From the NCBI GenBank assembly GCA_008632985.1, contig QPGO01000197.1, forward strand, positions 1 to 64,000: DNA of 64,000 nucleotides, given 5' to 3'. The notes beneath the pieces are model-generated. The model did no database searches. It was given only the letters and a program-made list of their open reading frames with translations, and had not been told where the DNA came from. The translations under genes were made by a program, and so were the position numbers. Positions 1,561 through 60,715 of the stretch are shown here, in pieces (within the stretch, counting starts at the first letter, position 1; every line of letters starts with the position of its first letter). This DNA comes from Psammoneis japonica. Taxonomy: Eukaryota.

Positions 1561-3360
1561 GTTGCTCAGCTGTGCCAATGGGTTGGGTGCTCTGAACTGC
1601 ATCCCAGGGGTGAACAAGCAACTTGGGCGGCTGGGTGCTCAAAAGCCTGGTGTGCAGGTCCATTGTGCAGCTTCCATGTGTGGGTTCTGGCCTCATTTTC
1701 CAGACGCACTGCCCAGATTGTAACTTGGGTTCACTGCCCTCAACTTGGGAAAGTGATGCTTGCTTGCTCAACCATCTGTGCAGGTTTGTGTTGAACTCAA
1801 CCATCTGTGCAGGTTTGTGTTGAACGCCCCAACTGTGCTCTCCGCGCGCAAAAGCCGCTCCGATGCAGCTGGCGCCTTTTGCAGGTGTGGACTCTGGCCC
1901 CAGATCCATGATCTTTTTTTCATTTCAAGTGCCTTGCCACCTCATCAATCCAAGGACAGATCATCAGTTTGTGGCCAATCACTTCCAAGAGAGGAGCTTT
2001 TGCAATTTTCACAAAAAAGGAAACTGGTGTGTGCAACAGGCCAAACTTTTTGTCCGTTCAGCACAAGACAACAAAGAGTGCACAGACAATGGGTGTCATC
2101 ATGTGTGTTGTTTGGCTCAGTGGCTGTGGACATGTCTGCAGCAAGCCAAACGTGTGCGCAACAAGCAGCTTTGGCAAAAAGCAGTGGTTTGCCAAACACA
2201 CGACAAAACAGCTGTGCTGAACCCAACAACTGGCACTTTGAGGTTGACAAGTGCACAGTTCACACAAAGGTCTAACAGCCCTGACAGGGGCTGGGCTCAC
2301 TCCACTGTGTGTCCAGGGGTGCTCAGAGGTGCCAAAAAAAGAAGCTGGCAAAGTGCAGGAAAACAGATGAGTCGGCAGCTGTTTGAGAAAAAACACCACC
2401 AAGAAACCAAAAGTCCACCCTTGATCTGTTGCATTTTCAAAAATGTTGAAAAGTGCAAAATGAGCAGCTGCCTGTGTTTCTGCAAACCACCACTTGATCT
2501 TTTTGATGTTTTCATTGTTCTCCATGCATTTTCATCTTGCACTTGCGTCACCTTTCACATGCATCTGCTTGCTGGCAGCTCCCAGTGTGCATTCTTGATG
2601 GTCGGTGTGTTCCCACAGAACTCTTTCGACCAAATTTCATTGCATCATTTGCTGGCATCTTTGCTCAGTCTTTTTTGCACATCTGCTTCCCCAGCTGTTG
2701 CTGGCACACAGCTCCTCCCTCTGGCTTGCATTTTCCCCCTTGTTTCCCAGCACTGTGTGCTCCCCCAGGAATGAGCCCTTTGCACTGGTCATCTTTTGAC
2801 TCTTCTTTGGTTTTCCATGCACGTGCACCCACTTTCTCTGGCTGTTCTCCCAGAAGACCAAAAGACCAAATGCCTTGTCACTCGCCAGTGCTGGCTTGCT
2901 CAAGCAGAGTCTTGATTCAAGCCGACAAGCTTTTGTGCAGTCTTCATCCCAACAAAAACTGGCAGCAGTGAGTGGCAGTTGCTGTGGCAGCCTTCACGTC
3001 ATCCCTCCCTTGAGCATTTCCTCCAATGATGGCATGTTGTCATTGTTTTCTGTTTGTTGGTGCATCTCTTGCCATGACCCACCCAACCCAAGTGCACGAG
3101 AGACTGGCCAGAGCTCTTTTCCAGCAGAGCATCTGTGGCAGTTTCTGTCATCAAAGACACTTGCAGAAGAACTTTTTCTTCTGTTCTCCACAAGCACCAT
3201 TCCTTTTTCTCCATCTGAGGTGTTGACAATCTGTGATGTCCAGTGTCATCTCTGCATGGCTTGGTTTTTTGTCCAACCCAAACACAAAAAAGTCCTTCCT
3301 GCTGCATCTGCCATCTCGAGATCCTCTCACTCCAGTGCTCGTGACATCACCACAGTGGCC
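1561..3360. mobile_element. Heavily decayed repeat/TE-derived block, TpA- and CpG-depleted
   Basis: Only 2 TpA found by eye in 1800 bp (1721, 2273). Many spurious Cys/His-rich ORFs. 29-bp tandem duplication at about 1768-1825. Family not recognisable. Confidence 0.55.
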
Positions 3361-3635
3361 AGCATTTAGGGATGCTTTCCCAGAATGCCTCCACAGTCTA
3401 TTGGCATCCTGTCAAAGTCTCCTCAAGTGTCGCTCATACGTTTGATTAACGGGAGCGCTGTCTTAAGCTTTCTTGTGTGTTTTCCTTGTAAACCGGCGTG
3501 TGGCACATGCGCAGCAATGACAAACTACAATGCATTGTCAGTTTTCGATGATCGCACAGCATTCTTTACTTACAAGTAACAGCATCAAAACTAAAAATAA
3601 AAAATGTGCTCTACACTCGTGCAGCGACGGGGCAA

Positions 3636-4721
3636 CTAATAGAGAAAAAGAAGACAAACCATGGAGACACCCGCCACTGCGGAAGCGACCAAGCCATCAC
3701 CCTGCAACGAACGAGCAGCCACCGATGGGTTTTCAGTATTTGTAGGCATGGCACTAGAACTCTCAGATAGAGTAGGCGGCGGAGTTGTCATGGAGGACGG
3801 TTCTGGGGTACCCTCAGACCCAGTAGGCGGTGGAGTTACCATGGAGGACGGTTCTGGGGAACTTGTTGTAACCTTAGAAGGAGCTAATGAAGGCATAGCG
3901 GAAGCGATAATTCTTGAAGGCATAGCAGAAGCAATTATGCTCGAAGGCATGGCGGAGGGCAATTCAGAAGGCGTGGGCACAACAACAGGAGATGGACTCG
4001 TTGACGGAACACTGGAAGCTGGAGTTGGTGACGTCGGTGGCGTCGTGACGGAGCCAAACTCGCACCTGCCAACTTCAAGTTGTAGGCTATCATCAGCATT
4101 TGGAAGAAAGGGTCTATATATCCCCGTACCACCTGTTCCAAGGCACTGGTCAAAGCTTCCAGGAGGATTCACATTCTCACAATTCACCGACAGTTGATTA
4201 TCTGCATCGCAGGGTTGGCAGCTGTTGCACTCGTTTCCGTTAACCTCTGCCGTGCACTGGTCAAGAACTACTCCAACTCCAACCTCTCCATACTGAAAAT
4301 CAATGCAGATCTGATCATTATCAAATCCAACCGTGTATTGGATGCACACTGTTTCGATGGGTGTAAATTCCTCGAGGTTGGATTCGACGCCTGAAATAGA
4401 ATTGATAACGCAAATGCCAAGATCCGCAACGCACGACTCGCATGATGCAGCACAGCTGTATTCAATTCGTGCCAGAGTTCCCGTGCATTCGCAGTTAACA
4501 CCAACGTCTAAGGGTGAATTAAATGAACTCTCAAAACCATCACAAACTTCCTGGACGGTCTGAAGTGAACGGTGATAGTGATCCATGGAGCGCACGAGAC
4601 GAGGAGCCCTCTTGGTCAAAAAAGAAGCAAGGCGCAAGCCGTGGTTTTCTCTGTGACTCCTGGCTCCAGCACAAAGGTTGACGCTGCACAAGCAAACAGC
4701 CGCAGCAAGACGGAACATCAT
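3636..4721 (-). CDS. Secreted Cys-rich protein with Pro/Ser/Thr stalk and probable GPI-anchor signal
   Basis: 361-aa ORF with N-terminal signal peptide, Cys-rich domain, PST repeats (PEPSSMxTPPPT, IIASAMPS) and hydrophobic C-terminus. Confidence 0.85.
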   Translation of the reverse strand: MMFRLAAAVCLCSVNLCAGARSHRENHGLRLASFLTKRAPRLVRSMDHYHRSLQTVQEVCDGFESSFNSPLDVGVNCECTGTLARIEYSCAASCESCVADLGICVINSISGVESNLEEFTPIETVCIQYTVGFDNDQICIDFQYGEVGVGVVLDQCTAEVNGNECNSCQPCDADNQLSVNCENVNPPGSFDQCLGTGGTGIYRPFLPNADDSLQLEVGRCEFGSVTTPPTSPTPASSVPSTSPSPVVVPTPSELPSAMPSSIIASAMPSRIIASAMPSLAPSKVTTSSPEPSSMVTPPPTGSEGTPEPSSMTTPPPTLSESSSAMPTNTENPSVAARSLQGDGLVASAVAGVSMVCLLFLY

Positions 4722-7281
4722 AGCAGGACGGACTCCTCGACAGTGTCGTGCGCTGCTCTTCCTACACTGTATGGGTGAATACCATAATATGAAACATCAT
4801 CTTCATCCTGTGCCGAATAGATCCGCGGAAGTGTTTAGTCGTATTGTCGATTTCAGCAAAAGTTGAAAATCGCGCGCTTACATGTCGAACATAGCCCAGC
4901 GTGTCGAAAAGTCAAGGAGTTCTGTTGGTGGTGACCGATCATTCGATGGCTTCTTCGTTTGCTTCTGCGCGCGATTTTTCAACGGAGGCTGAGGCACGTT
5001 CCCACCCCGATAATTTCGGCCGTGAAATAAATATAATTTCGTTCTACACAAAATTCCTGTAGAAACTCTCGTACAAGAAAAATCGCACGTCTGTTTTCCA
5101 TCCGCCAATTTACAGCCGTAATTATCAGCAAATTACGACGACAGGTGTCGGTCGTCGTAAATTCTCTCCCGCAAATATAATTTTCACGGTGAATTCGGCG
5201 TTTTGGGAGCTCGAACGTGCCACGTCACACAAGCCGCCCATTTTTTTTTTCTTTCTCCGCTCCGATCGCACTGGTGGAACCATGATGGCTGCTGCCATGA
5301 ACGGACCCGTTCACACACGAACAACCGTCCTGTCTACGAAGGCAAGAATGCAGAGACAGGTCAATGAGACTGCGCTCGATGCAATCAAGCTGTCACAATT
5401 TTGATTTTCATTGTTGTCATGGCTTGTGACGACCGTGTCGACCAATGGCATTTTTGATGTCTTCGTTTCTCTTGTTCAGATTTTGCACTGGGATTCTTCA
5501 CAAACCACATGTCTGCAGACTTGAGGCCGAATCCTCGCAGCAACACATTGCGATCTGATGTCACACTGAGGTGGCTCTTTGGTGCATGTGCTCAAGGTCA
5601 CTTGGTTGACGGTCAAGAGTCAAGAGTGCAACATTTTGGTCACTTCAACAACAACAAGAAGGCTTGTTGTGATGGAGTGTGACTGTGAAGAAGGCTGTGT
5701 GCACTTGTTTCATCAATCTTGTCGGAAGTTGGGACAATGGCGCCGGTGGGGGTCAATGTTTTGCACAACATCGTCGGCATTGTGCCTCACAGTGCCTTGC
5801 CCTGCTGTCTGGAGGCCTTCTCTGCAACTTGCCATTTGTCACTTTGCTCTTTGAAATGGATCCAGGCCAATGGCAAACTGCAAGAGTTGACAATGGTGCC
5901 TTTTAGCACCTCACATTCTGCAGAAATTACATTTGGCAGTTTTGCATGCTGCAGTCTCACTGCACGCCATTGTTTCGCACGTCCCCCTGATCTCTCTGCA
6001 ACTCTTGCCAGTGGATTGAATGTTGGATGCATTTCTTCTGACCTTCACTGGTGTCATCCTGAGTCTTGGGTTGCCGCAGAGCAGTCGCAAAATGGACAAC
6101 GATTGTCGCTGACAATGTCGTGGTGTCTCTCTGGCTGGCAGCTCTGGCTGCTGGTGGAGAGTGCTGCAGCAGTGCAAACAGTGCTGTGGCGTGCAGCGTC
6201 CTCACCGAGCTCGACATGAGATTTTGATCTTTTTGCCGATCAAATTCGTTCCCAGCCTGATGCCCACAAACGCGCAAATTTGGCCAAATTGTGTTTGTTT
6301 TACGGCCGAAATCATCAGGGTGGGAATGTGCCTGAAGCCAACAATGTGTGATCGCGGATCCATGGAGATCGTGGATCGTTTGGAGCACAGAAGAAATGTG
6401 TGTCGAATGTTGTGCTCCTGACTGCACTCATTGAGAGATCATGTTGCTTGTGCACCAAGATGAGTGTGCCCCTCAGGCATTGGCCAGCCACCACCTTTTG
6501 AGCTTCTCCCCGAAGCTCTTGCTGGGCTGGTGGCTTGATGCCAGTTTTTTTGTGCTTTGCTTTTTCAGCCCCAGCTGTGCTCTGCCAATCTGAGCTGTGC
6601 CTCCTGCATGCTCTTGGCAGCCTCAAGTGCAACACTTGGCTGCTTTTTGAGCACTGCCTCAATGGAGACATGGCTCAATGACAAACTGTGGGCACACCAT
6701 GCGCGACACTGCTGCACTGCTCCTGCAGTCATTTGAGCTTTGTGTGGCCATGTCCAGCCAGCACAGCACATGGCAGCTGCTGAAATTTGCTTGTGGGTGG
6801 TTGGCTGGTTGCGTGCAGGAGAAAATCACCTGATTTTGGCAAACCAAGAGTGCACATGTCCGGGTTCATTCGGTTGCTTTTGACTGCCACGCATGTTGAG
6901 TGTCATCACCATGTGTGTGAAAAGCTGGGCATTTTTGTGGCACATGACATCACAACTTGAACTTGCATCCAATGCACAACGCACAAAATGAAACAAAAAA
7001 AACAAAAAACTGCATTTCCCACTGTGAGGCTTGTTTGTTTGTGTGTTGATGGCAACATCAAAGTGAGAGCATTGTCACACAACAGCCAGACAGTGCTTGA
7101 TTTGATGGCTGTGTCAAATTTGTTGTTGACCCTTGCTGTCATGGGATGTTTGGATGTGCAAACAAACAGAGTGCTTGCTGACTTTTCTGTTGTTCTTGTG
7201 ACCACAGTGTGCACAATTCTGTGAGCACTTGGCTCATTTCCAATTTGCAGATGGCCTGGCATGCATCCAGTGAAAGCGTCT

Positions 7282-7536
7282 GGCCTGTTCCAGCTCCAGG
7301 TGATCCGCTTTTCATCACTCGAAAGGCCGATTTTCTGCGAAGTTTAGCGCAATTAACTCCTTCAATTTTGATCGTTTCGAAAATTGAAAGGTGAGTGCAC
7401 ACCCAAAAACACATGCAAAGTGTGCACTTGCCCTTTGGCAAAAAACGGATTTGGAAAAAGCCAATTGTGCCAAATGCACAAATTGCCAAATGATGGGAAT
7501 CGAACCCGCGCGGAGCACCTGGAGCTGGAACAGGCC
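7282..7536. mobile_element. MITE (family B), 255 bp, 21-bp TIR, 4-bp TSD
   Basis: Perfect TIR GGCCTGTTCCAGCTCCAGGTG...CACCTGGAGCTGGAACAGGCC, flanked by GTCT on both sides (7278-7281 and 7537-7540). A second copy is at 8624. Confidence 0.9.
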
Positions 7537-8623
7537 GTCTGCACTGTTGGCATTGTGGTCTTTTTCTTGTGACGGGCACAGAAAATGACATTTTGGTTTC
7601 CAAGTGAGGCAACAGTTTTGTTGACAACACACCGTCTGTGACTTTTGGCGATGAGCGATGGCACGTCCCAGTTCGCACATGTCTGAGATGGCAACAACAT
7701 CAGATCATCTGTCAAGTCCACAGCGCCAATGCTCATCACTTTAAAAGCCTCGTGCTTGTTGCTTTTTCAACCAACACCTCAGCTGAACTTTTTGTTCCTC
7801 TGCTGACTGCATGATGCAGCAAATGCAATGTGCTTTGTGCTTTTTGTCATGGGACAGCACGGGAACCAAACTGTGCAATGGACAGGAGCTCTGAACCATT
7901 GGCAACCAGATCTGTGATCAGCTTGTTGTGCTCATTCCAAATCCATGATCAAATGGTTTGGAGCAGCTGTCCTTCCTTGCACCTGCATGTCATCCATGCT
8001 GGAGCCAAATTTCCAACCTTTGGACACTCCAACCGGCCAACACCGCCCTTGCCCCAGCAGCTGTCTTTGTGCCTTGGCAGCACAGGACGAGACAGCTGCC
8101 CAAACACATGCCATGTCCCTCCATCTGGTTGTGCACAAATCCAAGACACGTGCTGGCATGACAAAATTTCCATTGTTGTGGCTGGCCAGTTTTGTCTCAT
8201 TTTGTCAATTGCTTGGTGCAAGCCCTGCACACCAGCGCAAAGACAGCCAATCTTGCACACTAAATTGTGGCACACTGTTGCACGTTGACTCACAAGTTAA
8301 CTTGTAAAACACAATCTTGTCAACTGCCACACGTGTTGCTGCCACCACATTGCTCATGCCAAGCATCTCCATCTCACTCCATTTGCAAAACACATGAACA
8401 ATGGTGCCTTCCTTTGCTGTGGCAAGTGAGATTGCCCCCCCCCCCCCCACGTGTGACAAACATTTCCTTCCAATGACTGCTCTTCAACATCACCTCAGAA
8501 CTTGTTTGCCCTGCAAACTCTCCTTTTCTGGCAGCATTTGTGCCATTTCAGTCAACGGGTCAAAGGACGACAATGGCAAACTGCTGCCAATGGGAGAATC
8601 CAAAGAGCTGGGCAGTGCCGCTT

Positions 8624-8882
8624 GGCCTCTTCCAGCTCCAGGTGATCTGCTTTTCATCACTCAAGAGGCCCATTTTCTGCGCAATTTAGTGTGCCAAAGT
8701 CCTTCATTTTTGATCATTTCAAAAATCGAAAGGTGAGTGCACACCCGAAAATGCGTGCAAAGTGCACATTTGCCCTTCAATTTGGCAAAAAACGGATTTT
8801 GAAAAAGTCAATTGCACTGAACCTGAAAATGGCAAATGACAGGAGTCGAGCCCATGCAGAGTGCCTGGAGCTGGAACAGGCT
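8624..8882. mobile_element. MITE (family B), second copy
   Basis: Colinear with 7282-7536. Ends GGCCTCTTCCAGCTCCAGG / CCTGGAGCTGGAACAGGCT. Flanks GCTT / GCTC (one mismatch). Confidence 0.85.
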
Positions 8883-9751
8883 GCTCCCTCTTCCATTGCT
8901 TCGCCTCCCCCCCCATTGAGTTTGTTGCAACGGGGTGTCACTCCAACACAGGGTCCACTCCACAAGTTCAATCGCAACACAATCCCTGGCTGTTGAGATC
9001 CACTCGTGCAGCGGCCCCAGAGAGAGCCACGATTTCATGGCGACACCGCCGTTGTGCCAGCTGCAGAGATGGTGTTTCTCAGAATGCCAGCAGCACCCTG
9101 ACAACGAAGATTTTGTTTCCGACTCATTTGATGATGATGCATCTCCTTTCATCAACCAGGGTGCTGCTGCCATTGTGAAGCCAGGTTGTTTTGCCACACC
9201 GGATCAAGCTGAGCACCTTTCCGCTGACAAAGATTTTGTCGAAGCACACAACAGCGAGACCACTTGTCTGTTGGTGGTTGTCGCGTGTCCCTTTCAAATT
9301 CAAAATTTGCACATGAAACTAAAAGCATTTTGTTGAAAGCACTGGTTTCAAAAACTTTCTTGTTGAAACTGTCCTCAAACTTTGGCATTTGCCAGTGTGA
9401 CTGAAATGAATGGCTCGCAATCGCCATTAGTCTACGACGTGCCGTGCGTCATTTATTCAACAACATGTTGTGCGGCAGGCTGTTCGTCGCGCCAATCAAC
9501 ATCATGTAAATGATCCGTTGCGATGTGTCCGTGTGTGAAGCTTGGGCAATGGGATGAACGTCATTCATTAACATTTTGATCACAGCATGCGTTAAAAGCG
9601 TTATTTCCGACATTTCAGTTTCAACGACTGACTCGACTCGCACTCCCTGCATGCACCTTTTTCACTTTTCCCCGTGCATGCGTGTTTCCCCACTTTTTCT
9701 TAGAATGCACATCGCAATTTCTGAACTCATAAAATAACAACGAAAAGAACA

Positions 9752-10567
9752 ATGATGAAGACAAGCAACGACAAGAACAGCACAGCCCCTGCGGCTGCTG
9801 CTGGGGCCACCACCACTTCTCCTCCCTCCTGGTCGCCTTTCTTGCAGGCGTTGACAGGTGTCCAGACCAAGCCATTGGGTGCACCAGGGGAGATTGAAGC
9901 CGCGAAGAAACTGCTGTACCAGGTCTATCACGTCGAATATGGGTGGGATCCTAATCCATCCAATCCTTCTGGATTGCACATGGCCAAAGATTCCCAGATG
10001 TGTGAAGACACCATTGACGCCGACTGGTTTGGCGTCTTTCAGAAAGGCCAACTCGTGGCCGTGGCCCGTGTCGTCGCAGGTCCCCAACTCGAATTCATGC
10101 GCTACCTGGACGATTCAGCCCAAAAGGTCTTGTGGGAATGCGTCCAAGACCGCATCTCGACTTGGGGCAGCACATTTTCCACCAGCAATGCAGTCACCGC
10201 CTCCTCCGCCGCAGCCCATCATCGCCAGCCACCGGCTGTCTGCGAGTTGAATCGCCTCGCTGTGCTCCCTCATGTTCGTGGATCCATGCTGATCTCTCTC
10301 TATATGGGTTTCGCCACGGCTTACTTTGCGCAACAGTGTGGAGCCACCATTAGTGTAGGGACGGCGTCACCAAAACTAGCCCGGGTATACGAACAACGGT
10401 ACGGCGCTGAACGGTTGGGGTTGTCCATGAAATACGATCCCTTTGATGACTGCGCGGCTGAATTTGTCTTGTACCGTCTTGACTTTTCCCCGGCGGTCCT
10501 CGTTCTACGTACTTGTTTCTTTTACTTTTCCTGGAAGCTCAAGACGTTGCTCTTTGGCAAAAGTTAA
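9752..10567 (+). CDS. GNAT-fold acyltransferase, FeeM/N-acyl amino acid synthase-like
   Basis: Intronless 271-aa ORF with EAAKKLLYQVY, WFGVFQKGQLVAVARVV and VCELNRLAVLPHVRG, the pattern of FeeM/LuxI-like GNATs. Confidence 0.65.
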   Translation: MMKTSNDKNSTAPAAAAGATTTSPPSWSPFLQALTGVQTKPLGAPGEIEAAKKLLYQVYHVEYGWDPNPSNPSGLHMAKDSQMCEDTIDADWFGVFQKGQLVAVARVVAGPQLEFMRYLDDSAQKVLWECVQDRISTWGSTFSTSNAVTASSAAAHHRQPPAVCELNRLAVLPHVRGSMLISLYMGFATAYFAQQCGATISVGTASPKLARVYEQRYGAERLGLSMKYDPFDDCAAEFVLYRLDFSPAVLVLRTCFFYFSWKLKTLLFGKS

Positions 10568-11406
10568 GTCTGTTGAAGAAGTCTTCTAATGTATGCATGC
10601 ATTTTCGTGAAAGCATCTTGGGGAGGATAGTCTTCTTTTTCGGGACTTTCATTGGCTACTACTATTATTCCGTTTTCTTGGTGGTGGGGCACCCAACTCC
10701 CATCCATCCATAGCTTTCGTGCACACATAATACACTCACAGGCATGCACACGTCGAAATGGTGGGCGAGATTTAGATCCAGCAGTGGCATTGTTAGTTCT
10801 AGAGAGTAAATGGGTTAAGATGTGTTTTGTTACATTTCTTCTCTACACTCTCTTTATACCAGAATTATTGACACGACACACACACGGGGCTACATTTGCA
10901 CTACTGTGTTTTTTTTTCTTCATCACTGAGGAGTGACATTTCTTCCACATGGGAGACGCATCGAACGAGTTTCTTCAAAAGGTCGTGAATGGCAAAGGAG
11001 CCTAAACCACCGAGTTTATGTGACTTTCGGACGGCACCTTCGTCACGAGTGCGACGGCTTCTAAGTTAGAAGCAACTGTTTTGCTGTTGTGATTCTGTAT
11101 CACTTTCAAGTACACTTTAGAAATGGTTTCGGGCACGGCGAAATGAAAAAAAAAGCATGACTGCATCTACTAGTGCTTATAACGGCAACGTACTCTACTC
11201 AAACCGAGACACACCAATGTGACTACTCCAGCGATGGAATGTGACCTTTTGTTGAGGAGCCACGTGCATCCCTTATCAATAATACAAGACACTTCACAAA
11301 CGCAAAAGAAAGCCCACGCAAATTGACTATATTCACAAGCAGCACTCTGATTGGATTCCCAGGAAGCAACACGTCGAGACAATGCATATAGCTCAAACCA
11401 CACTCT

Positions 11407-11853
11407 CTACTTCTTGTTCTGCAACAAGGACTTTTCCTTTTTTAATCGCAACGCAATGTCTCGGAGTGATTTTTGCTTCTTTTCCTGTTGGTACTTCTTT
11501 TTATCAAAGGTGGGCTCGCGGTTTCGTCTTGTCGAAACACTGTTGGTGCTGCAGCTTGCGCGACTGTTTCCAATTCCTCGAATATTGCTTTTTCGTTTTT
11601 TACTTGTTGACGACGACTTGTTGCTTGTAACCACTCGCTGCCGCGTTAAATCACGTGAGGATATGGCTCGGTCCAACTCTAGCATCCTTTCGACTTGAAC
11701 TTGAACTGGATCCAGTGGTACGATTGCATCGTTCTCGGCGTCAGCGCGTTTTCGCTTTTTCTTTGCTTTTCTTGATTGAGACAATGATTCATTACGAAAA
11801 CTGTCCGCTTCAATTGTTTCCTGTAAAAGCTTCTTGACAAGTTTCTTGGACAT
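11407..11853 (-). CDS. Small basic Lys/Arg-rich protein, probably nuclear (weakly AROS/RPS19BP1-like N-terminus)
   Basis: ORF 11407-11880 with likely start MSKKLVKKLL. NLS-like basic stretches. Normal dinucleotide composition. Confidence 0.6.
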   Translation of the reverse strand: MSKKLVKKLLQETIEADSFRNESLSQSRKAKKKRKRADAENDAIVPLDPVQVQVERMLELDRAISSRDLTRQRVVTSNKSSSTSKKRKSNIRGIGNSRASCSTNSVSTRRNREPTFDKKKYQQEKKQKSLRDIALRLKKEKSLLQNKK

Positions 11854-12970
11854 TATTATGATTCTTCTTCTCCCACTCAACTACGATTTAAAAGCGTCTG
11901 TTGTTGTTGTTGTTACTCTAGAGAGTAGATGTGGCAGTGTGGCATTGTGGATTGATGTGGCTTGTGGCTGTTGTTTTTTGTCCGGTGTGCACGCGCAGGT
12001 GGTGTGTAGAGTGTCGTGGGCGTACAACGGACAGACCGGAGTTTGTTTCAGTCTTCATGCATTCATCTACCGGTGCGTACGATGTCTTTCCTCGTTGCCA
12101 CAAATCTCTGCATCTTTCTTGTTGAAGTGTGGTGGCAAGGCTTCAACTGCAGTTTGCCTTTTGCCTGGTGCACTTCTTTTCCACATGCTGGATTGCCTTC
12201 AAGTTGATGATGTCATCTTTTGAGTTGGCAACACAGCCTGAAAGTCCTGCTCCTGTTTTGAGCTGCCGGGCTCCAGCATCATCTCTCTTTTTGCCTCAGC
12301 TCATGCCAACCCTCCAATTCATTGTCGTTGCATGCCAGTTCCTAATTGTCATTGCATTTGCTGACTGGTTTGCAATGGTCTGACTGCACAGGACAGCTGC
12401 AGTTTGCTGGCTTGTGGCCACAAGCTGGCCTTGATGAACCAGCCCAGAGAAGCGCCAATTTTCGAGTGCCTTTTTTCTCCCACATTCTGCCATGTCACCA
12501 GCCAGTGGTGTCCACAACAGTGCATCATGAAAGTGGCGCACAGCAGGTGGGTGTGGCCAGAGAGGTGTGTTCTCTTGCACATCGTGATTGTGTTGTTTGG
12601 TTGTGAGTGAGTTCTTGGAAGCGGGGGACGTGCAGACAACTTGCAATGTGTTTTGTTCAGAAATGGAGGAAAAAAGTTGAAATGTGAGGGCCCTCTAGCT
12701 GGCAGCTGCTTTGCTTCCTTTTGACTTTCTTGCACTCTTGCTTGATTGGCTCTTGCTGCTTTTCATTGTCGAGCTCTTTTTTTGGAAGCTTTTGTGCTGG
12801 ATGTTGTCGAAGCTGCGCGACGACCAGTCAATGCATCAACAGGCCATTAGGAAATCTTGGAGAAGGGAAGGGGATTGCCCATGTTCTGGAGATGTCCGTG
12901 CTCCTGCACCCCTGCACACAGAGCAGAGTGAAAGAGGACCATGATGAATGTTGGCAGGAGGATCGTCTTG

Positions 12971-13366
12971 GACGCGTTCCAGCCCTAGGTGGGAGCTCGT
13001 AGTGCTGACGTGTGACACAAATAATTTTTATCATCCGTCGTATGTTTCGCACGTAGCTTTCTACGTGTGATATTTAAAAAAAATTGTCCAGACTCGCTGT
13101 TTTGCGAAGCCCCAGACGTTTTATATAACGAATTTATAGAAACAATAATGCGCCAGTTACATTCTTCAATGTCTGAAGAATGTAACTGGCTAAGTAAAAA
13201 ATGATGTACTTCAATCATGGGCGAGTTTGTGCGTTCGCAAAATTGCCTCATTTTCTGTTGGCGATCATTGACATTTTAATTACCGTATAATTTTACTACG
13301 GAGCTCGCACGTAGAAGTCTACGGGCCCAATGTCACACGGATTCCCACCTACGTCTGGAACGCGTC
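12971..13366. mobile_element. MITE (family A), 396 bp, unmutated copy
   Basis: TIR GACGCGTTCCAGcccTAGGTGGGA...TCCCACCTAcgtCTGGAACGCGTC. 4-bp TSD CTTG. Perfect 17-bp internal stem at 13152-13190. TpA-rich. Confidence 0.9.
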
Positions 13367-16318
13367 CTTGACTGTCATTGTCGGGTGGTGCAGAGTGCGC
13401 CAAAAGTTGGATCCTTCCACAGAGGATTCATGCAGGACCATGCAAATTGGATGCCAGAGGTTGTGCAGAAAAAATGCAAAATCCCTGCACTCATCTGTGA
13501 CCAAAACTGGTGGCAAAATTTCCATTCCCAGGATGCAAAACCAGGTGTGACTTGCGGGCAATGCATGACGATGACACCCCTTTGCAAGACTCAGGAAATC
13601 ATGCATCGTCAAAAGATCATCAAGAGAAGATGCAGTTTGACACTCAAAGTGCAATTTCAACCCACGTGTCCACAGATGCCATTGTCTAAAAACCGACATG
13701 TTGCATTTTCCAATTTGGTGCAAAAATGCATTTGTTTGATGACATGAGATTCAAAACTGCACTTTGACCCCCCAAACTGTGTTCCCCTGCAGCCAGGTGC
13801 AGTGCTTGTGACGCTTTGATTCTTCTTTTGTTGTGATGCTTGGCTTTTTGATGAAAACATGGATGAATTGGCTTGGCCAAGCTGAGGGAGTCCCAGTTGA
13901 ATTTGCGCTGAAGTCTGCGGTGCCACAGAAATTGCACACAAACATTTGGCCAGCGTGCTCTGCACTTGACAGGTGTCATTCACCTGGGGGCTGAGTTTTT
14001 GAAAGAGAGAAGGAAGCATGGGAGTTGTGCACAGAGACACCCTGGTTCCTCTTGGGCATGCAAAGAAAGACCTGAGTGAGGGACAGTCAGATCATTTTCA
14101 ACAAAAACAGTTTTTGACCGCAGTGCACCCGGCTTTTGCAGAACGCACTCAGAGGGGGCAAAGAGAGATTGAAACATGAGTCTCTTGCTCAACACACCAC
14201 TGGAGCAATGGTCAGACACTTCTGCAACTGCTGCAGCAACATCAAAAAACAACAAAAACGAGAGCAGCAATGGCTGCCGCAGGTTGTCCAAAGAACAGCA
14301 AGAGCAACAAGAAGGAACATCATGCCGGTGGTGACAGGAGGTCCAAGCACTTCCTGAACAAAAAAAGAGAAAACGGGAGCTTTGTGTCCAATCTTTGATG
14401 CTGCAAAACAAAGTTGCCATTGGGGAGAGCAAGAGCCACCAGTGGATGAGAAATGACAAACATGCGCGAAGAGGCTTTGCAGCGGGCAATGCCGCCTCAC
14501 CTGAAAGCATCTTTGGAGAATCCAAGCAACCATCACTCCATTCCAGGTTTGGTGTCAGCTCTGTGTTCCCCAGAAGACAATGACAAAATCAACAAGACAC
14601 AAGATCAAGGCCAAGTCAAGCAGAAGATGCTGCAGTCCGCTGCGCACTTTCACGGCTCATGCATGCATCCATGAAACTCCCCCATTGCTGTGCATTTGAG
14701 CAAGATTCAAAAGAAAGTTCAAAAGAATGATGGTGAGTTTGTGGCAGACATGAGAAAAGGAGTGAAGTGGACACCACTTGGGTTTGTTGCCAAAGCCTGA
14801 CAAGTGGCACCTTGGGAGCTGCTGGGCATGTGTCTGACTGCCATTGATCATGTCTCCATTGCACTTGCCAGCAAAACATTGTTGTGCATTCTGTGGCAAG
14901 AACAATGCAGGGTCAAAGGGGCTTGTGTTTGGGCCAAGTGTTGAATGGATGAAAACAGCATGGATGCTTTGTCAGCGCGCAGATTTCCTTGATGCTGATT
15001 GTTGTGGGAGGGTGGATGAAGAGGGGAAAAGGGCCAAATCTTTTTGCACTGTTGACCCCTTTGTTTGTCAAGGCTTCCAGCAGTCACTGGGGTCTGGGCA
15101 TGCATGAAAGTGTGGTGTGTTGCTTGGTGCATTTGTGCAATCATTCTATTTTTTTGGGAACATTCTCATCCATGGTGAACAAGACAAGATCTTTTGATTG
15201 CTCTTGATGGCAGCAGCTGAGCTGCTGTGAGAGCCTCCTCAGCTGGGATCCAGTTGAAACCATTGGATGCCATGGACAGCCGCAAGAGTTGCAAAAAGCT
15301 TCGTTGCATTTGTGAACAATGTGTTTGAGCAGCACATGCAGGGATTTTTTTAGTTTGGCCAGGACTCGCAGATTGCAATGGATGTGACATTCAAAAACTG
15401 AAGCAAGACACAGGTGCATCTGAAGGATGGGAGCCAGGTGGTGACAAAGGACAAGATGAAATGGAGCCCTTTTTGAAGTGCATTCAGGTGGCAAGGAAGG
15501 CACAATGTGCCCCAAAGCTCAGTCAACTTGACACCGACAATGCAGGTGCCAACAGTGGCATGTTCAATTGTGTTTTCTCAGGTGTGGGTTGTTCTTGGAC
15601 AAATGCAAAGCTCCAAATGATTTTCTCAGTTGCTCAGTGTGTGCCTGCATTGTTTCTGTGTCTTGTGCAGAGCTGTTGGAAGGTGTCAGCCCACATGTCC
15701 CAAAATCCAACATGCCGGTTCTTTCATTGCCTTGTCAGCATTTTCATCATTTTCAGGATGTGGCCAATGCCAATCAGGTTTTTGAAGAGAATCATGAGGC
15801 AATGGTCAATCTCAATGCCAGCCATCATGGAAAGTGCCGTGGGCTCAACGCAGAGTGGAAGAGAGGGCATGCTGTTGACGAGGGAGCATTGGCTGCAGGT
15901 GCATTTTGAGGGGTTGCCCACAGCAGTTGTTGATGTTCATGCCATGAGGGTCTTTCCCATTTGGTTGAAGTGCATGTTGGAAGATGGGCGGCTTGTTCCA
16001 TGTGGCAGACAAATCAGTGGCAACCTGAGCAGACTTTTGAAGGGTCATGGCATCAATGTCAAAGACCGTTTGGAGACAGCAGTGATTGCAAAGATGCATG
16101 ACAACTGCGGCTCCACTCGTGCAAAGGCTCTTGCAGAGTGAATTTTGATTGTGACATGATTGCTTTGCAAAGAGAAGGGACAAAGGGCTGGTTGTGAGAG
16201 AGCGTCATCTTCCTGCCAACCCAGCTGAGAGATTCTTGCATGTGTGGCAGCCGGCGCCATTGTCCACAAGCTTCTCACAGTGCAGTTGCTGAAACTGGTC
16301 TCTTCTTAACTCCAGGGC

Positions 16319-21920: not shown

Positions 21921-21921
21921 C

Positions 21922-22039: not shown

Positions 22040-23202
22040 CGCGCATTCAATACCAAGCATCGGCAGGAATTTAACGTCACCGTCAAGTCTCCTTTACCGC
22101 TGGATATCTGGATTGATTATACTACCTATGATCGCTTAAGACATACATTCAACGGTTATATCCAAGTCTATCCTTGATCCTCATCCCTTTTTATACCCAT
22201 TCAACGGTTAACGGTCAAGAACCCTACATATTCATAGATCTTCGTTGCTGAAGACACACATATATATGTGTCTTCACGGCCAAGAACTTGAACCCACTCT
22301 TTAGACTGCGGCTTTGCTGCCACTCTACAAGCACACCGAGTCTATTGTACCTGATCTACCCCCGACCACTGGTGCTCTACAGTTCTACTAGGTCCACGAG
22401 GATGACTGTAAGAGCAAGTGGCCGTGGTTGCAGCCTGCGTTGGGGCGAGGGTGTTTTCCCGCGTTTGTTCGTTCGTCCACAGCACCTGACGCCTGCGTCA
22501 ACTGGCCAGCCTGATCGGGAAATCCAACCGACATAAAATAAGAACGGTTCGGGGGTCTTGTCCACCTCCAGTCAGCTTGCCTGCAGGGGTTTACAACCCG
22601 CCACTCCGCTCGCAAGCAACCCAAAGCGCCGCCAGCTGCGGGCTCGGACGTGCCGGCACAACTCTACGGACCGGATGGGAAGTTTAGCACTTAACAACAA
22701 ATGGGACAGCACAACCCGACGACTTCTGATTTTAAGATGGTCCAAGATTTCAAGTCAAGTCTGGCTCAAGTCAAGTCTTTTTCAAGCCAAGTTGCAAGTC
22801 AAAACTCCGAGTCAAGACCGCGCTCTAGATTGGCTCCTGTCTTTTGTTTCTACTGCACCGTCCTCCGTCATGGTTCTCACGTGACAGCAACAAACCGAAA
22901 GCTTCAAATACATTCTAGGCACTGTGCTCAATCAAGACGATGACAGCCCTCTTTGTTCTGCTCTGTCCATCAACGGGATTGAATCGTGTGAGGAGTTGTT
23001 CACATTCTTGCCCACCCAAATTGACGCCCTCACTTGCAGAGACGGCGCCAAAGCAGCTCCTTTGCCAGGGACCTGCAGAAACCTCCTGGCAGCTTTGATC
23101 AGCTTCCACTTTGTCAAAGTTTGCAAATAATTCTGCGATTGCCAGTGTTGAACACACCCACGTGTTTTCAGTGCCAGGCTCCCCGTAGAACAGCCGACAA
23201 CC

Positions 23203-45800: not shown

Positions 45801-45840
45801 TGGTTACGGTGTTCCCGGTTCAGCTCGAAAGCTTGTTTAG
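42805..45840 (+). CDS. ATG1: Autophagy Ser/Thr kinase ATG1/ULK
   Basis: GSGSFATVY, VAIK, HRDIKPQN, DFGFAR, TLCGSPLYMAPE. GT-AG intron 43515-43598 joins HHR-YDAKADLWS. AIM-like DDSGFVMV. C-terminal MIT-like helices. Confidence 0.92.
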
Positions 45841-49399: not shown

Positions 49400-51560
49400 G
49401 GCACGTCGATCGAAAACGCTCACACTTTTTGATGATTCTTTCCGCGTCGATTTTGGGCCTCCACAAAGGCGTTTCGTGGAGCTCATGACGATTGACAAGA
49501 AGCTTAAAAAAAAAAAGAGCTGTCCTTGGTGTTGGCAAAAAGAACAAGTCCCAGCATGGATGCTTGGACAAGAACTTCTTCCTCTCATGGAGTCACACAA
49601 AAGGTCGTGGGAGGCACATGCTGGCGCGCCATTTTCGTGTGGCAAAAGCAAGAAATTCAAAATGGCTGATGTCACACCATCCAAGCAGTGGTCTCAATGG
49701 TCACATTCAAAAGCAATTGAATTGAAAATTGAGTCAGGTTGCATTTGGTCTCTGAGACCTCATTTGCTTGCTGTGAAGTGCAGCAGAGCCCCATGCTGAG
49801 CGAGCTTGGCGTGCTCTCTCTTTGCAAGTTGTTCTTGCGCCAAGTCGCTCTGCACAAGAAGATGAGCAAGTGTCGCCATTGTTGAGACTGCCAGCTCTCA
49901 CTGTCAACAAATGACATGCTGCAGATTTTAGAGCAAAGGCATGGGGGGGCATTGTGGGTTCCCCCTGGAAGAAATGCACTGTGCAGAGCACAAGAGTGCA
50001 AAAAAAAAAAACAGCAAAAAACAAGAACACCTGTGCTGTGCTTGGCTCCAAACACATTTCTTCATGAAATGTGTGGGTGTCACATTTGTTCAATCATTCA
50101 ATCCCACATGCAACACTCAGCTGTGAAAAGCATTGTTGTTTGCAGGGTCCCCACAGGGGGTCCAGAGAGGTTCAAAAGTTTGGCTCTGCGCAGCCCCTGA
50201 TGCTCTGCAAACTTCTCTTGCTGGCATCTTGCACTGCTTGGAGGGGGGTTGCAAACTTTTCATGTGGGGTCCCTGGAGCGACACAAGTTTTTGCAGGACA
50301 GTTCCTGGTTGCAGTTCTGCAAGGAGAGAGAGGCAAGGTTCCCCTCTGTCACTTCCGCTGCTGCATGCTCCAGCACTGCTGGCTGGCCAAACACCAACTG
50401 CTCCAATGCCAACCACACTCTGCAAATTTCTTGTGCTCTTGTGTTCCTCCTGTGGAGGCTGTAAACTTTCTCTTGGGGGGGCCAGGGGGGTGCAAATTTT
50501 TGCATGGTTGCTCCCCTGCCTGATGCTCTGCAAACTTCTTGTGCTTGCACTCCTTGCTGGGGGCTGCAACCTGGAGGTGCAAAAACCTGGTGCTTTGCAA
50601 ACTTCTCATTTCATGCTTGCATTCCTGACTGCACTTTTGCCAGAGATGCAAGATCCTCTGTTGCTTCCAGTGTTGTCTGGCACAGTGCCAAAACTGGCCA
50701 AACGCTGACTGCTCTCCAGTGCCGCTGCAGTCACTCCAGTGCCTCTCCAGCCCCCTGATGCCAGCTGCTGCCACACCCTGTCTGCTCTGCAGTGCTGACC
50801 AATTCAGCACCAGTTGCTTGTCCCTGTGCCATCAACTCCAAGTGGTTGCTGCTCTTGCCCTGCCTGCAGCTTGTGCTGGCAGAGCTTTGCCGGGTGTGTC
50901 AGTGGCGAGCAGCCCACAGGTTTCAAACAAACCAATTTTTTTGCCTGACTGACAAGCAGCAAGCAACAGACAAACAATTCTCAGCATTGACTGCAGCAGC
51001 AGGAGGAACAACAACCGACATTCTTCACATCAGCTTTTGCCAAGCCAAGTGCGCACTTCTTGGGGCACACCCATCCTGTGCAGTTTGCTTGCACTGCACA
51101 GATGGATTGAGTGTGGACAGTGACCTGCAAGCTGCAGCTGGGCAGCTCTGGGCATGGAGTGGTTGTTGAAATGCATTGCTGAGAGATGACCGGCACAACA
51201 TTGCAGTGTTGCACATGTTTTGTGCTGTTCTGCACACTGCACATGAAAATCATTTCCATGTGCAAGAGCCAACAGACAAAAAATCAAAAAATCAAAATGT
51301 CAACACACACTCTCGCCAAATGAGCATGGCACAGCCCATTGCAGCTCTCATGCTTGTTCATCAAAACACCTCCCAAGCAACTCTCCAATGCAAACCTTTC
51401 CACATCTGAACACATGTGGCACACACCACATCAAAACACATCATGATGTGGTGATGATGTGCACCACCAACCGGCGCCCACAACAAAAAATGACAGATCT
51501 CACTGCCCCTTTCCACAGGGTGTGACACAACAAATTCAAATGCAAGCTCGAGGATCATCA
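49400..51560. mobile_element. Decayed repeat block, TpA- and CpG-depleted, with degenerate internal repeats
   Basis: About 3 TpA in 2.1 kb (49505, 49929, 50462). Recurrent TGCTCTGCAAACTTCT-like motif near 50200, 50415, 50525 and 50590. Confidence 0.55.
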
Positions 51561-51709
51561 AACACTGGCGGACAAGACCGCCACTGCGATTCTATTTGCA
51601 AGTGGTGACACCCAAATTGAAATTTCTGTTTTTCATTTTTAATATTGGGCAACATATATATATACAGTATAAAATATAAAAATTTGGAATAATTACCCAA
51701 ACTTCCCCC

Positions 51710-58483: not shown

Positions 58484-59369
58484 TTCGATGGCCAACCTGC
58501 ATTGTCGCCGGGCCGTATAAAAACAAAACTGTGCAGCCTACGTTGGATTACGAAGCGTTTTTTTTTTGCCGTGGGACTTCCGTCTACGAAGAGTCATGCG
58601 TTGAACATAATTGCTATAGGTGCCTTCTTATCTGGTGTCGATTGTAAATAAACTGTATAATGATTAGGTACGCCAATGGGTAAGGCCTTCTTGCAAACCC
58701 ACATGACTACGTGAGATCGTGGATTGATCGAATTGATCTCGATCGCGCTGGACAACTAGTTTTTTTTTGTTCGAAACCATCGTATCGCGGTGCTCTTCGT
58801 ATGATGGAACCTCAATGAGCAACAAAGCTTGACACAGAAATCAATCTCATGCGCATCGTTCCCAAAGCATTCCACTCTCATTCTCCAATCCTGCGTCAGG
58901 CAGCATTGTCGACATTTACACAATGCTCACAATCTTCAACCCAAACATCGACAACCTTCTCAACACAGTTTTGAGAAGCATCGGAAAAGCTCTTGATGCA
59001 ATCACATGAAGGACATGGTTGCTTCTTTGCGAACCGGTCCAGGCAGAACTCTCCAGGTTTGCAGCCCCCAGAGAATCTCCGCACACATTGTGGCATGAGT
59101 TGTGGTGTTGCACAGGTGGGCAGAAATGTAAACCAGGAGATCCATGGGCAATAAATCAAATTGATCTGCTGGCTTCTTGTCTGGCACCATCCGGGCAGCT
59201 CTGCCACCGGCAAACAAGGACAGCCCAAAACAAGTTGAAGATTTTTGTCCAAATTGAATTTGCACATTTTTGAAACAAGGTTGTCAAGGCCAGTTCTTGT
59301 GTTGATTAATTGTCAAGGCCAGTGTTCTGCAACATGTGTGTGCGTGGAATCCTCCAGTTGAGCACAAGT

Positions 59370-59950
59370 TGAAAATTCCACTTTGAGGAAACTGCTGTGT
59401 TTGTCTGGACAAAATGAAGTGTGAGCAGACTTTCACTTTGAAGCAGTCGCCACATCATTTTGGGGCCACACCACTTTGCAACAGAATGATGACATTCATG
59501 CAATGCACATGTTTTGGTGTGGTTGATGGACTTTGAACTTGGCAGCAAAGCACCCATCCATCACCAAGTGTGTTGCTCTCTCATCCAGGACTCTGAACCA
59601 GCCACTTTCCACTTGCTCCTTTTTGTGCCAAGCTGCATTTTGCTGCCACTTGCTCTGGTTTTTGTCATTGTTCTGTTGTTTTCAAGTTTTGCACGCAGTG
59701 TGTGCCACCTCAGGCTCAAGCCTGCTTTTGGCTAGAACACCCTTTGCCAAATCAGCTGCACCTTTCTGCAGCCCTGCTTCAGTGGCAGCCAGCTCAAGCA
59801 ATCTTCTCATCACAAAACATGTGAGAGTTCCCCCTGCACGCCCTGGGAACACTCATGAGCCTGCAGCCTGTTTTGGCATTGACTCCAGATGTGAAGAGGG
59901 TGGGTGAAGACTTGAGTGTCTTCAGCCAGTGATGCACTGCATTTGGGGTC
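59370..59950 (-). pseudogene. Decayed paralog of the C-terminal part and 3' flank of the 55367-57399 gene
   Basis: Colinear with about 55274-55790, with TpA and CpG sites converted to TG/CA. Sits inside the TpA-depleted block 58810-60500. Confidence 0.8.
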
Positions 59951-60715
59951 ATGGGGCAGTTGTCTCACATGCATCACTCTCAACACCGCCCCTGTCGTCA
60001 TCTTCTTGATTCTTGTTTGGAGCCATGAGATGCAACCGTCAACTTAAAATGGAAATCAGAGGCAATGTGGCATTGGAGCAGAGTTGTTGGGGAAATGGGT
60101 GGTGGAATGGGTGTGCGAAGTGCGCTCAGCAACAGAGGGGAAAAAATGGGCATGAAGCGCAGAGCAGACGGCTGGGAAAGGGAGTTGTTGGTGATGGTTG
60201 GGTGGTGGAGAGTGGAGAAGAGGGTTTGACATGTGGAAAGGTGGGTGGAGAGGGCCCTGGCAAAGTTTAGACCAAGGATTTGGGAGGCCAAAAAAAACTG
60301 GGAAGCAGCAGTGTGGGGGAAGTGCCGAAAAGCGGCCCGTGAGATTTGTTTCCTGTGGCAGAGTGTGTTGGAGTGGGGTGAGGTGGTTGGATGGCACGAG
60401 AACGGAGGTGTTGAAGGTGGAGAAGGATGCTGTCGAGTCGGAGAGGGAGGACGGGTCAGTCCAGGGTGGTTTGGGGGGGAGAGGTGGGACGAGGAGGACG
60501 TTGTGGTCATTCACACCACACCGTGGCTACACTCAATCACACCCATCGCCATCACACGGTCTGTCGCCGCACGGTCCGTCAGGAAGTGACAGACAGACGA
60601 ATCTTGCAACGATTTTTTTTCACACAATGATAAGACGATGCCAATGACCCGCACCGGTACGGCGTTCTGAGACGGGGAGTTGTTTACATCATCGATTGTC
60701 GAGAGTGTTTCCACA

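Follow-up and report, generated by a model that had tools for sequence, protein, structure and literature searches.

Our analysis of a 64-kb stretch of the diatom Psammoneis japonica genome (part of contig QPGO01000197.1, hereafter the window) revealed six discrete blocks in which the dinucleotide TpA is nearly absent. Comparisons between repeated copies within the window, and between a long interspersed nuclear element (LINE) and its relatives, showed the signature and direction of what appears, from the sequence, to be a context-specific mutational process changing TA to TG or CA (A to G at TpA). The explanation that best accounts for the data as a whole is domain-limited hypermutation of this kind in transposon-derived diatom DNA, likely by an adenine deaminase, and we put its probability at roughly 0.6. 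The enzyme, its recruitment signal and a function in defence are parts of this explanation that we infer from the pattern.

Dinucleotide content is given throughout as the ratio of observed to expected counts (o/e), and ‘the rest’ denotes the 34.7 kb outside the six blocks. Block limits were set from TA-free gaps, and sliding windows returned the same six blocks, which together make up 29.3 kb of the 64 kb. They lie within ~100–200 bp of the blocks proposed in a first-pass annotation made from the sequence alone, which had also counted two TA in 1561–3360, the exact number (at 1721 and 2273). That annotation regarded all six blocks as strongly depleted, which was borne out for five of them (TpA o/e 0.02–0.07); the sixth, at 23128–34049, is composite and milder (0.15). 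The blocks were as follows.

1721–3367 (no strand): block B1, 1,647 bp with two TA (at 1721 and 2273); TpA o/e 0.02, CpG o/e 0.23, TG/CA o/e 1.74/1.81; no Pfam domain.
5335–9320 (no strand): block B2, strong; TpA o/e 0.04, CpG o/e 0.43; repeated segments inside.
12078–12969 (no strand): left part of block B3, strong; TpA o/e 0.07, CpG o/e 0.30.
13368–21530 (no strand): main part of block B3, 16 TA in 8,161 bp; TpA o/e 0.03, CpG o/e 0.24; tyrosine (Tyr) 0%.
23128–34049 (no strand): block B4, composite and milder; TpA o/e 0.15, CpG o/e 0.76.
49505–51593 (no strand): block B5, strong; TpA o/e 0.02, CpG o/e 0.20.
58917–60528 (no strand): block B6, strong; TpA o/e 0.07, CpG o/e 0.29.

The window as a whole had a TpA o/e of 0.34 and a TpG/CpA o/e of 1.40, and the rest had a TpA o/e of 0.54. 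The five strong blocks contained 43 TA in 18,378 bp, where the TA rate of the rest would give ~710, and block B4 contained 97 TA in 10,922 bp. The longest TA-free run was 1,460 bp in the blocks and 198 bp outside them, where 0.48 runs of at least 200 bp would be expected. Significance was estimated for each block from a Poisson distribution at the TA rate of the rest (0.0388 per bp), which gave P values between 9e-11 and 4e-110, and from mononucleotide shuffles, which always yielded at least 500 TA where 16–17 were observed. The right edge of B5 is sharp, with an intact (TA)n microsatellite at 51655–51677, 62 bp past the last block position.

The composition of the blocks indicated which changes had taken place. 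The only strongly depleted dinucleotides were TA and, in five blocks, CG (o/e 0.20–0.43), the latter a feature absent from the first-pass annotation; the only strongly enriched ones were TG and CA (1.5–2.0). There was no depletion of AT or GA, and AA stood at an o/e of 1.20–1.43 in the blocks compared to 1.16 in the rest. TA made up 3.78% of dinucleotides in the rest and 0.23% in the strong blocks, a 16-fold fall, and CG 5.53 and 1.67%, respectively. The sum of TA, CG, TG and CA meanwhile stayed constant, at 24.22% (the rest), 23.43% (B4) and 24.09% (strong blocks). As the gain in TG and CA equals the loss of TA and CG, only transitions are involved. TG and CA were balanced across the strong blocks, and windowed TG–CA skew revealed no domain-scale strand bias in the depleted blocks (standard deviation (SD) of z 1.43 vs 1.26).

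The direction of the change could be examined in two pairs of copies, one of a miniature inverted-repeat transposable element (MITE) and one of a duplicated segment, and in a tandem array, listed here.

12970–13367 (+ strand): TA-rich MITE copy, unmutated, with 29 TA, inside B3, which it interrupts (12078–21530); 25-bp terminal inverted repeats, 23/25 matching.
31296–31691 (+ strand): depleted MITE copy, inside B4; 8 TA.
33168–34173 (+ strand): depleted copy of the duplicated segment, a tandem duplication of ~1 kb, inside B4; 7 TA.
34413–35472 (+ strand): non-depleted copy of the duplicated segment, immediately outside B4; 39 TA.
32186–32640 (+ strand): tandem array of 11 units of 42 bp, inside B4.

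At the 29 TA sites of the TA-rich MITE, the depleted copy carried TG at 10, CA at 9 and TA at 4, and at the 35 aligned TA sites of the duplicated segment the copy within the block carried CA at 13, TG at 12 and TA at 4. The pooled result for these 64 sites (22 TG, 22 CA and 8 TA) confirms the earlier impression that TA gives way to TG and CA in similar numbers. Changes from TA to TG or CA outnumbered the reverse by 44 to 4 (P=1.5e-9). The transition rate per base in the pairs was 0.351 at TpA, 0.063–0.085 at other A/T, 0.146 at CpG and 0.072–0.085 at other C/G; the excess at TpA over other A/T, which the first-pass annotation had anticipated, corresponds to an odds ratio of 6.7 (P=9e-15), and the transversion rate at TpA was 0.099. 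Doublets in which TG in one copy faces CA in the other were the commonest adjacent double difference in three pairs within the window, at 10/38, 4/32 and 7/12. The last of these is an internal pair of B2 (7281–7535 and 8623–8881; 82% identical and TA-poor in both copies). Six more such doublets were found among 40 listed variant rows of a comparison with contigs. Doublets of this type are expected where one ancestral TA or CG decays independently in two copies.

A side observation concerns the order of the changes in the depleted segment at 33168–34173. The first 13 TA conversions are CA in 10 cases and the last 12 are TG in 9, which may reflect a strand switch near 33665; this split (3 TG of 13, then 9 of 12) has P=0.017, a post hoc value uncorrected for the choice of split.

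The tandem array allowed the same change to be followed among units of one origin. One column reads TA in 1 unit, CA in 4, TG in 5 and CG in 1, a second reads CA in 3, TG in 4 and other dinucleotides in 4, and a CpG column reads CG in 4, TG in 2 and CA in 5. The units of such an array form as DNA at the site itself, and their divergence is direct evidence of in situ decay on both strands. Judged by the array and the MITE copy, neither of which is a retroelement, the TpA change acts at the level of DNA, in place and on both strands, as had been proposed from the involvement of elements without an RNA intermediate. The proposal that either strand is changed thus holds for the MITE, the array and the duplicated segment; the LINE, in which only the sense strand is affected, departs from it.

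The bases flanking TA influence both the extent and the product of the change. With both strands pooled, the residual TA per kb in the strong blocks and in the rest, respectively, was 0.05 and 10.3 for TAT, 0.27 and 11.0 for TAC, 0.60 and 7.65 for TAG, and 1.28 and 8.82 for TAA, so that the strong blocks keep 0.5, 2.4, 7.8 and 14.5% of the density of the rest. In the pairs, sites with pyrimidines (Y) on both flanks (YTAY) became TG in 12 cases and CA in 3, and sites with purines (R) on both flanks (RTAR) became CA in 9 and TG in 3. The rule that the A preceding a pyrimidine is the one changed was obeyed in 21 of 27 cases (P=0.006). From these figures, the preferred site is best described as 5'-TAY.

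The LINE occupies most of B4 (23152–31192) and appears young; it is followed by the depleted MITE copy, the tandem array and the duplicated segment, and depletion is stronger past 31.5 kb. It has two open reading frames (ORFs).

23152–25053 (+ strand): LINE ORF1, with tblastn matches in the upstream flanks of 20 relative loci.
25133–31192 (+ strand): LINE ORF2, with an APE endonuclease, a reverse transcriptase (RT) and an RNase H-like end; a single frame of 2,020 codons, interrupted by 4 TGA and free of frameshifts.

The baseline for this element was provided by the DNA loci of 80 metagenomic relatives (539,674 bp), and 39 near-full-length relatives were used for the composition of ORF2. TpA o/e was 0.39–0.85 in all 80, and the longest TA-free run in the 539,674 bp was 312 bp. 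As the relatives are normal in TpA, the family is not TpA-poor and the copy in the window became so. The consequences are visible in the protein. Tyr makes up 0.3% of ORF2, compared to 3.0–3.7% in five full- or near-full-length homologues (28–40% identity). At the 40 alignment columns with Tyr in at least three of these five, ORF2 has cysteine (Cys, TGY) in 20, histidine (CAY) in 4, Tyr in 4, phenylalanine in 7 and another residue in 5, and it retains the conserved tryptophan (Trp) at 28 of 31 columns. Even the RT motif reads CVDD, where the five homologues have phenylalanine or Tyr at the first position. In five relatives read in frame, Tyr was mostly kept at the Tyr positions of P0122, and Cys was never among the five commonest replacements. 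Two further relatives, L049 and L063, were out of frame and were left out of this comparison. The former (TpA o/e 0.39) had been considered as a mild case of the same change in another organism and was rejected, as its frame is broken and it failed the Tyr test.

An alternative explanation is that no hypermutation took place, and that the blocks are intrinsically poor in TpA through their source composition or through selection against TA/UA, or are an artefact of sequencing or assembly. A TA-poor consensus is conceivable for some of the TA-poor repeats, which are present in high copy number, and TpA is under-represented in the rest too. However, all 80 LINE relatives are normal in TpA, one copy of each pair is TA-rich, and the mass balance among the YpR dinucleotides is exact. 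Selection would not favour the replacement of conserved Tyr by Cys, which extends to the active site of the RT. The assembly was checked by aligning Logan contigs of the public run X1 (word depth ~32) to positions 1500–21499. A 4,603-nt contig (depth 32) matched 1500–5017 with 0 differences and spanned the entire B1, and four more contigs likewise showed 0 differences at 6304–7308, 7748–8387, 8786–9857 and 11859–12759. The TpA depletion is not an assembly artefact. These observations already contradict an origin without hypermutation in four cases (the LINE, the MITE, the tandem array and the duplicated segment), and we regard it as very improbable for the pattern as a whole.

The contigs also yielded observations that are separate from this check. 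In the single-copy DNA to the left of B3 (11291–11888), a second contig with a depth of 62, compared to 32, shows 9 differences from the window and probably represents the other allele; 3 of the 8 differences listed (11384, 11443 and 11458) are exchanges between TA and TG or CA. The bin 20843–21499 (about 21270–21485) had the highest summed contig depth in 1500–21499 (87,161), with many loose ends at 21315, 21418 and 21485. The region ~21270–21485 is CpG-dense with only 2 TA, and may be a short high-copy element at the right edge of B3. At some block edges the TA-free zone overshoots the CpG-poor zone by 150–300 bp; this may reflect separate short CpG-rich repeats, such as that near 21270–21485, and the overshoot was not used.

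The strand on which the LINE was changed differs from the pattern described above for the other elements. Relative to the 39 relatives, the sense strand of ORF2 differed by −3.46 TA, +2.94 TG (~3 SD) and −0.52 CA per 100 dinucleotides, and ORF1, relative to 15 relatives, by −3.88 TA, +2.37 TG (z 2.75) and +0.52 CA. Losses in the LINE amount to 79% of its TA overall and 96% of RTAY. The latter class is self-complementary and is reduced by 14.3 per kb, while RTGY is increased by 8.3 (z 3.9) and its mirror RCAY changed by −0.3. When counts of TA, TG and CA per 100 codons were compared with those of the 30 of the 39 relatives that have an open frame, the differences at the three codon positions in turn were −3.09/+2.62/+0.45, −3.64/+1.58/−1.32 and −3.50/+4.22/−0.22. 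The sense bias is present at every codon position and protein selection is therefore not its cause. Of the 20 codons changed from Tyr to Cys, 11 have a preceding purine and are nonetheless TGY and not CAY. On this sequence evidence, the edited adenines of the LINE all lie on the sense strand. A change confined to that strand excludes deamination of the minus-strand cDNA and leaves two routes: editing of the RNA ahead of reverse transcription, or editing of the non-template strand in place during sense transcription.

This finding gives weight to an explanation that the first-pass annotation had dismissed because editing of the ADAR type would be one-stranded. Under it, the changes would result from A-to-I editing of RNA at UA sites of transposon transcripts, fixed by reverse transcription, and no mutator of DNA would be involved. 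The LINE shows just such a one-stranded pattern, with the loss of TA matched by a gain of TG on the sense strand only, in both ORFs and at all codon positions. Its CpG content is intact and its 2,020 codons are free of frameshifts, so that editing of its RNA could have left it dead on arrival. The dismissal nevertheless stands for the DNA elements, which were changed in place. The MITE and the duplicated segment have TG and CA at 22:22, the tandem units formed in place with differing outcomes, and TG and CA are balanced over the strong blocks. ADARs prefer a 3' G, which differs from the 3' pyrimidine found here, and to our knowledge they occur only in metazoans. The extent of the loss in the LINE would also demand extreme or repeated editing. 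We therefore consider RNA editing unlikely as an account of the whole.

Targeting by the proposed DNA-level hypermutation appears to depend upon the domain in which a sequence lies. In both informative pairs, mutation was found only in the copy within a block, and the unmutated MITE, which sits in the middle of B3, belongs to a very abundant family. The bin containing it (12839–13505) had a summed contig depth of 78,942, compared to 32–52 in single-copy bins, and 16 loose ends were found at 13366. A depth of ~79,000 together with 16 contig breaks indicates many near-identical copies; in P. japonica the family has probably reached high abundance through recent activity. Mutation of one copy only, together with an untouched high-copy MITE inside B3, indicates that targeting follows the domain and not homology. 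The initial description of the process as repeat-targeted, in the manner of repeat-induced point mutation (RIP), was accordingly not upheld.

The residents of the blocks form a series with respect to the retention of TA and CpG. The MITE at 12970 is untouched, and the LINE has lost most of its TA with its CpG intact (5.56 CG per 100 dinucleotides compared to 5.40 in the 39 relatives). The depleted MITE and segment keep 11–14% of TA sites and 54–59% of CpG sites; in the strong blocks, retention relative to the rest is down to 6% for TA and 30% for CpG. This series suggests a continuing or repeated process acting on whatever occupies a domain, and the retention figures indicate that TpA is lost roughly 2–4 times faster than CpG. 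The loss of TpA without loss of CpG in the LINE shows the two processes to be separable. The converse was seen in four of the 80 LINE relatives (L062, L069, L077 and L080), in which CpG o/e was 0.40–0.56 and TG/CA 1.31–1.45 with an ordinary TpA of 0.51–0.62. Transposable elements (TEs) of diatoms are described as CpG-methylated by DNMT5a, and DNMT4 enzymes related to RID, whose function is not known, as common in diatoms (PMC9998398). By analogy, the simplest reading of the CpG part is deamination of 5-methylcytosine (5mC) in methylated TEs.

The association of the two losses, which share domains in five of the six blocks, raises the possibility that one causes the other. T:G mismatches from the deamination of 5mC in methylated TEs might recruit non-canonical mismatch repair, with a polymerase of the pol eta type that mutates nearby A:T pairs at WA (W, A or T). 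The errors of pol eta are mainly A to G at WA, with TA a hotspot, which fits the change observed. However, AA shows no depletion and AG no consistent enrichment in the blocks, and the persistence of AA had already been held against pol eta in the first-pass annotation. The transition rate at A outside TpA (0.085) is similar to that at C/G outside CpG, and the LINE has undergone its TA loss with no loss of CpG. Near-complete erasure (98% of TAY) is not predicted of collateral repair error, and we consider an origin in error-prone repair improbable, slightly more so than RNA editing.

A modified adenine at TpA, such as N6-methyladenine (6mA) in silent chromatin, that is deaminated or miscopied would place the specificity in a methyltransferase. 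This would account for the strict restriction to one dinucleotide, the domain limits and the two-strand symmetry at a palindromic site. A palindromic mark, however, predicts neither a change of the sense strand only in the LINE nor an effect of the 3' neighbour on the outcome, and 6mA in eukaryotes has been described at ApT, not TpA. The probability that we attach to a modified adenine is low, and lower than for error-prone repair.

Several points weigh against domain-limited hypermutation by a single deaminase. The polarised comparisons all come from a single 64-kb window and draw on four cases: a LINE, a MITE pair, a duplicated segment and a tandem array. The relatives that serve as the LINE baseline share 28–43% protein identity with it and come from other hosts. 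For the strong blocks, which have no recognisable ancestor, only mass balance and doublets indicate the direction of change. In parts of B2 and in the bin 20843–21499, a very high summed contig depth (at at least 90% identity) accompanies a scarcity of TA, so that some TA-poor repeats may have multiplied once depleted, or may belong to families with a TA-poor consensus. The sense-only change of the LINE, set against the two-strand pattern elsewhere, may indicate two processes instead of one. Runs of changes on one strand were not clustered in the two pairs (P 0.49 and 0.83), giving no sign of processive single-strand events. Finally, run X1 may be the source sample of the assembly, which makes the contig check independent of the assembler and not of the sample; the evolutionary comparisons among copies and relatives do not rest on this check.

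The identity of the DNA within the blocks was only partly as first described. The blocks had been taken for TEs or duplicated DNA, and a mobile origin was demonstrated for the LINE and the MITE. Some of the depleted blocks are repetitive, with summed contig depths of hundreds to thousands in B2, and B1 (1721–3367) is single-copy at at least 90% identity. The strong blocks have no recognisable TE domain, and their TE nature is suggested by repetitiveness in the contig data. A Pfam scan of 145 block ORFs of at least 90 amino acids (aa) (E≤0.05) returned the LINE endonuclease only and otherwise matches at chance level, and terminal inverted or direct repeats were not found at the block ends (best local scores 21–26). 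The LINE and one MITE copy were confirmed as affected; the supposed duplicated host genes proved to be the 1-kb segment. The ORF of its non-depleted copy (34302–35291) had no homologue at E≤0.001 among proteins of 181–578 aa, so that the segment can neither be polarised by an outgroup nor be called a host gene.

Loss of TpA also shapes the apparent coding content of the blocks. TAA and TAG numbered 615 and 532 in the rest and 127 and 78 in the blocks, with TGA steady at ~1,300, and the long ORFs found in strong blocks had a Tyr content of 0%. The blocks carry long meaningless ORFs because these stops have been lost. This applies to the ORFs of 200–324 aa in B3, the largest strong block, which are open because TAA and TAG have vanished and whose read-through translations appear non-coding. 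For annotation this means that TA-free relics, devoid of TAA and TAG stops and of Tyr codons, give rise to long spurious ORFs and are missed by homology-based detection of TEs.

Outside the blocks, a gene encoding a DUF4461 protein flanks the depleted DNA. All five of its named homologues are from diatoms (Nitzschia, Cylindrotheca, Pseudo-nitzschia, Fistulifera and Conticribra; 37–40% identity) among at least 120 matches listed, the best unnamed match being 58%. The products of 8 window ORFs had no exact match in the protein collection searched. An ORF at 38707–39570 (− strand, 287 aa) has 0.3% Tyr and 5.2% Trp, no Pfam match and a 48-bp tandem repeat at 39047–39188. The local TpA o/e at 39001–39500 is 0.28 and the CpG o/e 0.6, and a small segment here, although not among the listed blocks, may be mildly affected. 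At 42601–45840 (+ strand), an ATG1/ULK-like kinase extends across two adjoining ORFs, with the N-lobe at 42601–43533 and the C-lobe and an ATG1-like MIT domain at 43543–45840. The split suggests a short intron or a frameshift at ~43533–43543.

The mechanism that we propose is as follows. Discrete domains of transposon-derived and probably silenced DNA would undergo context-specific hypermutation, in which the A of 5'-TA, preferably of 5'-TAY, becomes G, turning TpA into TpG, or into CpA via the other strand. The process would act in place on both DNA strands of any resident of the domain, to near saturation. It would run ~2–4 times faster than the co-located decay of CpG to TpG or CpA and could proceed without it. 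In the young LINE, it would have edited either the RNA before reverse transcription or the non-template strand during sense transcription. The agent is most likely a nucleic-acid adenine deaminase working on a single-stranded substrate, converting A to inosine, which is read as G, and what recruits it may be the state of the chromatin or RNA in the domain and not sequence homology. Enzymes of the ADAT/TadA type require U at −1, and the natural TadA site, U-A-C, fits TAY; by analogy, such an enzyme is an attractive candidate. A deaminase domain was not found among the 31 ORFs of at least 200 aa in the window. The process may be of one kind with the TpA hypermutation described for integrated viral sequences of Bigelowiella natans, considered below. 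We put forward more tentatively, at somewhat less than an even chance, a chromatin- or RNA-guided defence of diatoms in which an adenine deaminase erases 5'-TAY from mobile DNA that is silenced, and from the sense strand of transcribed retroelements, by a mechanism shared with Bigelowiella. If true, this would constitute an ancient, A-directed counterpart of RIP and APOBEC throughout the stramenopiles, alveolates and Rhizaria (SAR), alongside cytosine methylation and independent of it.

Among known systems, fungal RIP shares with the diatom blocks an irreversible transition hypermutation, the inactivation of transposons, a strong dinucleotide signature and sharp edges. However, RIP changes C to T mainly at CpA and so creates TpA, whereas the diatom change is A to G and destroys it. 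RIP is also triggered by homology and mutates both duplicates, whereas in P. japonica only the copy within a domain is mutated and a high-copy MITE is left untouched. Decay of CpG through 5mC resembles the loss of CpG to TpG and CpA in five of the six blocks, and occurs alone in the four LINE relatives, but it is incapable of removing TpA and explains the CpG part only. The distinction drawn by the first-pass annotation from both RIP and 5mC decay was therefore supported, as TpA is erased and not created, and is lost in the LINE without CpG. The ADAR, ADAT2/3 and TadA enzymes share the change of A to G with U or T at −1. Their one-stranded signature fits the LINE, where one-strand A-to-G change was seen in ORF1 and ORF2; the MITE, the array and the duplicated segment did not show it, and in the diatom, DNA elements and tandem copies were changed in place on both strands. 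The A-to-G change at AA typical of pol eta left no trace in the AA content of the blocks.

The closest counterpart is found in the chlorarachniophyte B. natans, for which a recent preprint describes hypermutation of TpA to TpG or CpA in integrated viral DNA of mutation-accumulation lines (Mettrop et al., bioRxiv 10.64898/2026.01.13.699255, 2026). Of 231 de novo mutations in two viral inserts, 230 were A to G or T to C, all at TpA, at a rate raised ~1000-fold; coding sequences (CDS) depleted of TpA were enriched in RT, endonuclease-RT and DDE domains; and the authors propose, but do not show, an adenine deaminase, with an ADAT2 homologue as a candidate (bioRxiv 10.64898/2026.01.13.699255). The first-pass annotation knew of no description of such a process in diatoms, and our full-text literature searches likewise found neither a report for diatoms nor a further paper dealing with transposons depleted of TpA; the account for B. 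natans nonetheless shows that the process itself had been described (bioRxiv 10.64898/2026.01.13.699255). As far as that account goes, the two organisms share near-exclusive A-to-G or T-to-C change at TpA, confinement to discrete regions, low TpA with high CpA and TpG, and the involvement of TE domains. The window likewise shows A:T to G:C transitions at TpA only, with TpG and CpA as products, the exception being the LINE, with TG only, on the sense strand. B. natans is a rhizarian in which the process was measured de novo, whereas P. japonica is a diatom in which it is deduced from sequence. Depletion in B. natans is partial (rho 0.45 for nucleocytoplasmic large DNA viruses; 324 CDS with a TpA frequency of 0.0018), whereas the kilobase blocks of the diatom are saturated. 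The main text of the preprint is silent on co-depletion of CpG, 3' neighbour preference, targeting of one copy only and a sense bias in retroelements, although its supplementary tables may hold data on context and strand.

In summary, the signature in P. japonica is, on sequence grounds, a further case of the kind recently described in B. natans, in a second SAR lineage. To this the window adds, as new features, saturation, the TAY motif, targeting by domain, a co-located but separable decay of CpG, and a sense-strand mode in a retroelement. Experimental evidence for targeted change of A to G at TpA in genomic DNA is so far confined to one report, the 2026 preprint on B. natans, and no enzyme is known for it. 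Its extension to a lineage that is ecologically dominant and genetically tractable would suggest that the process is old or recurrent within SAR, and could offer a route to natural DNA adenine deaminases. The preference for 5'-TAY, the dependence upon domain and not homology, the independence from CpG decay and the sense-strand-only mode in the retroelement constrain the mechanism by which such a process, in the diatom as in B. natans, may operate.

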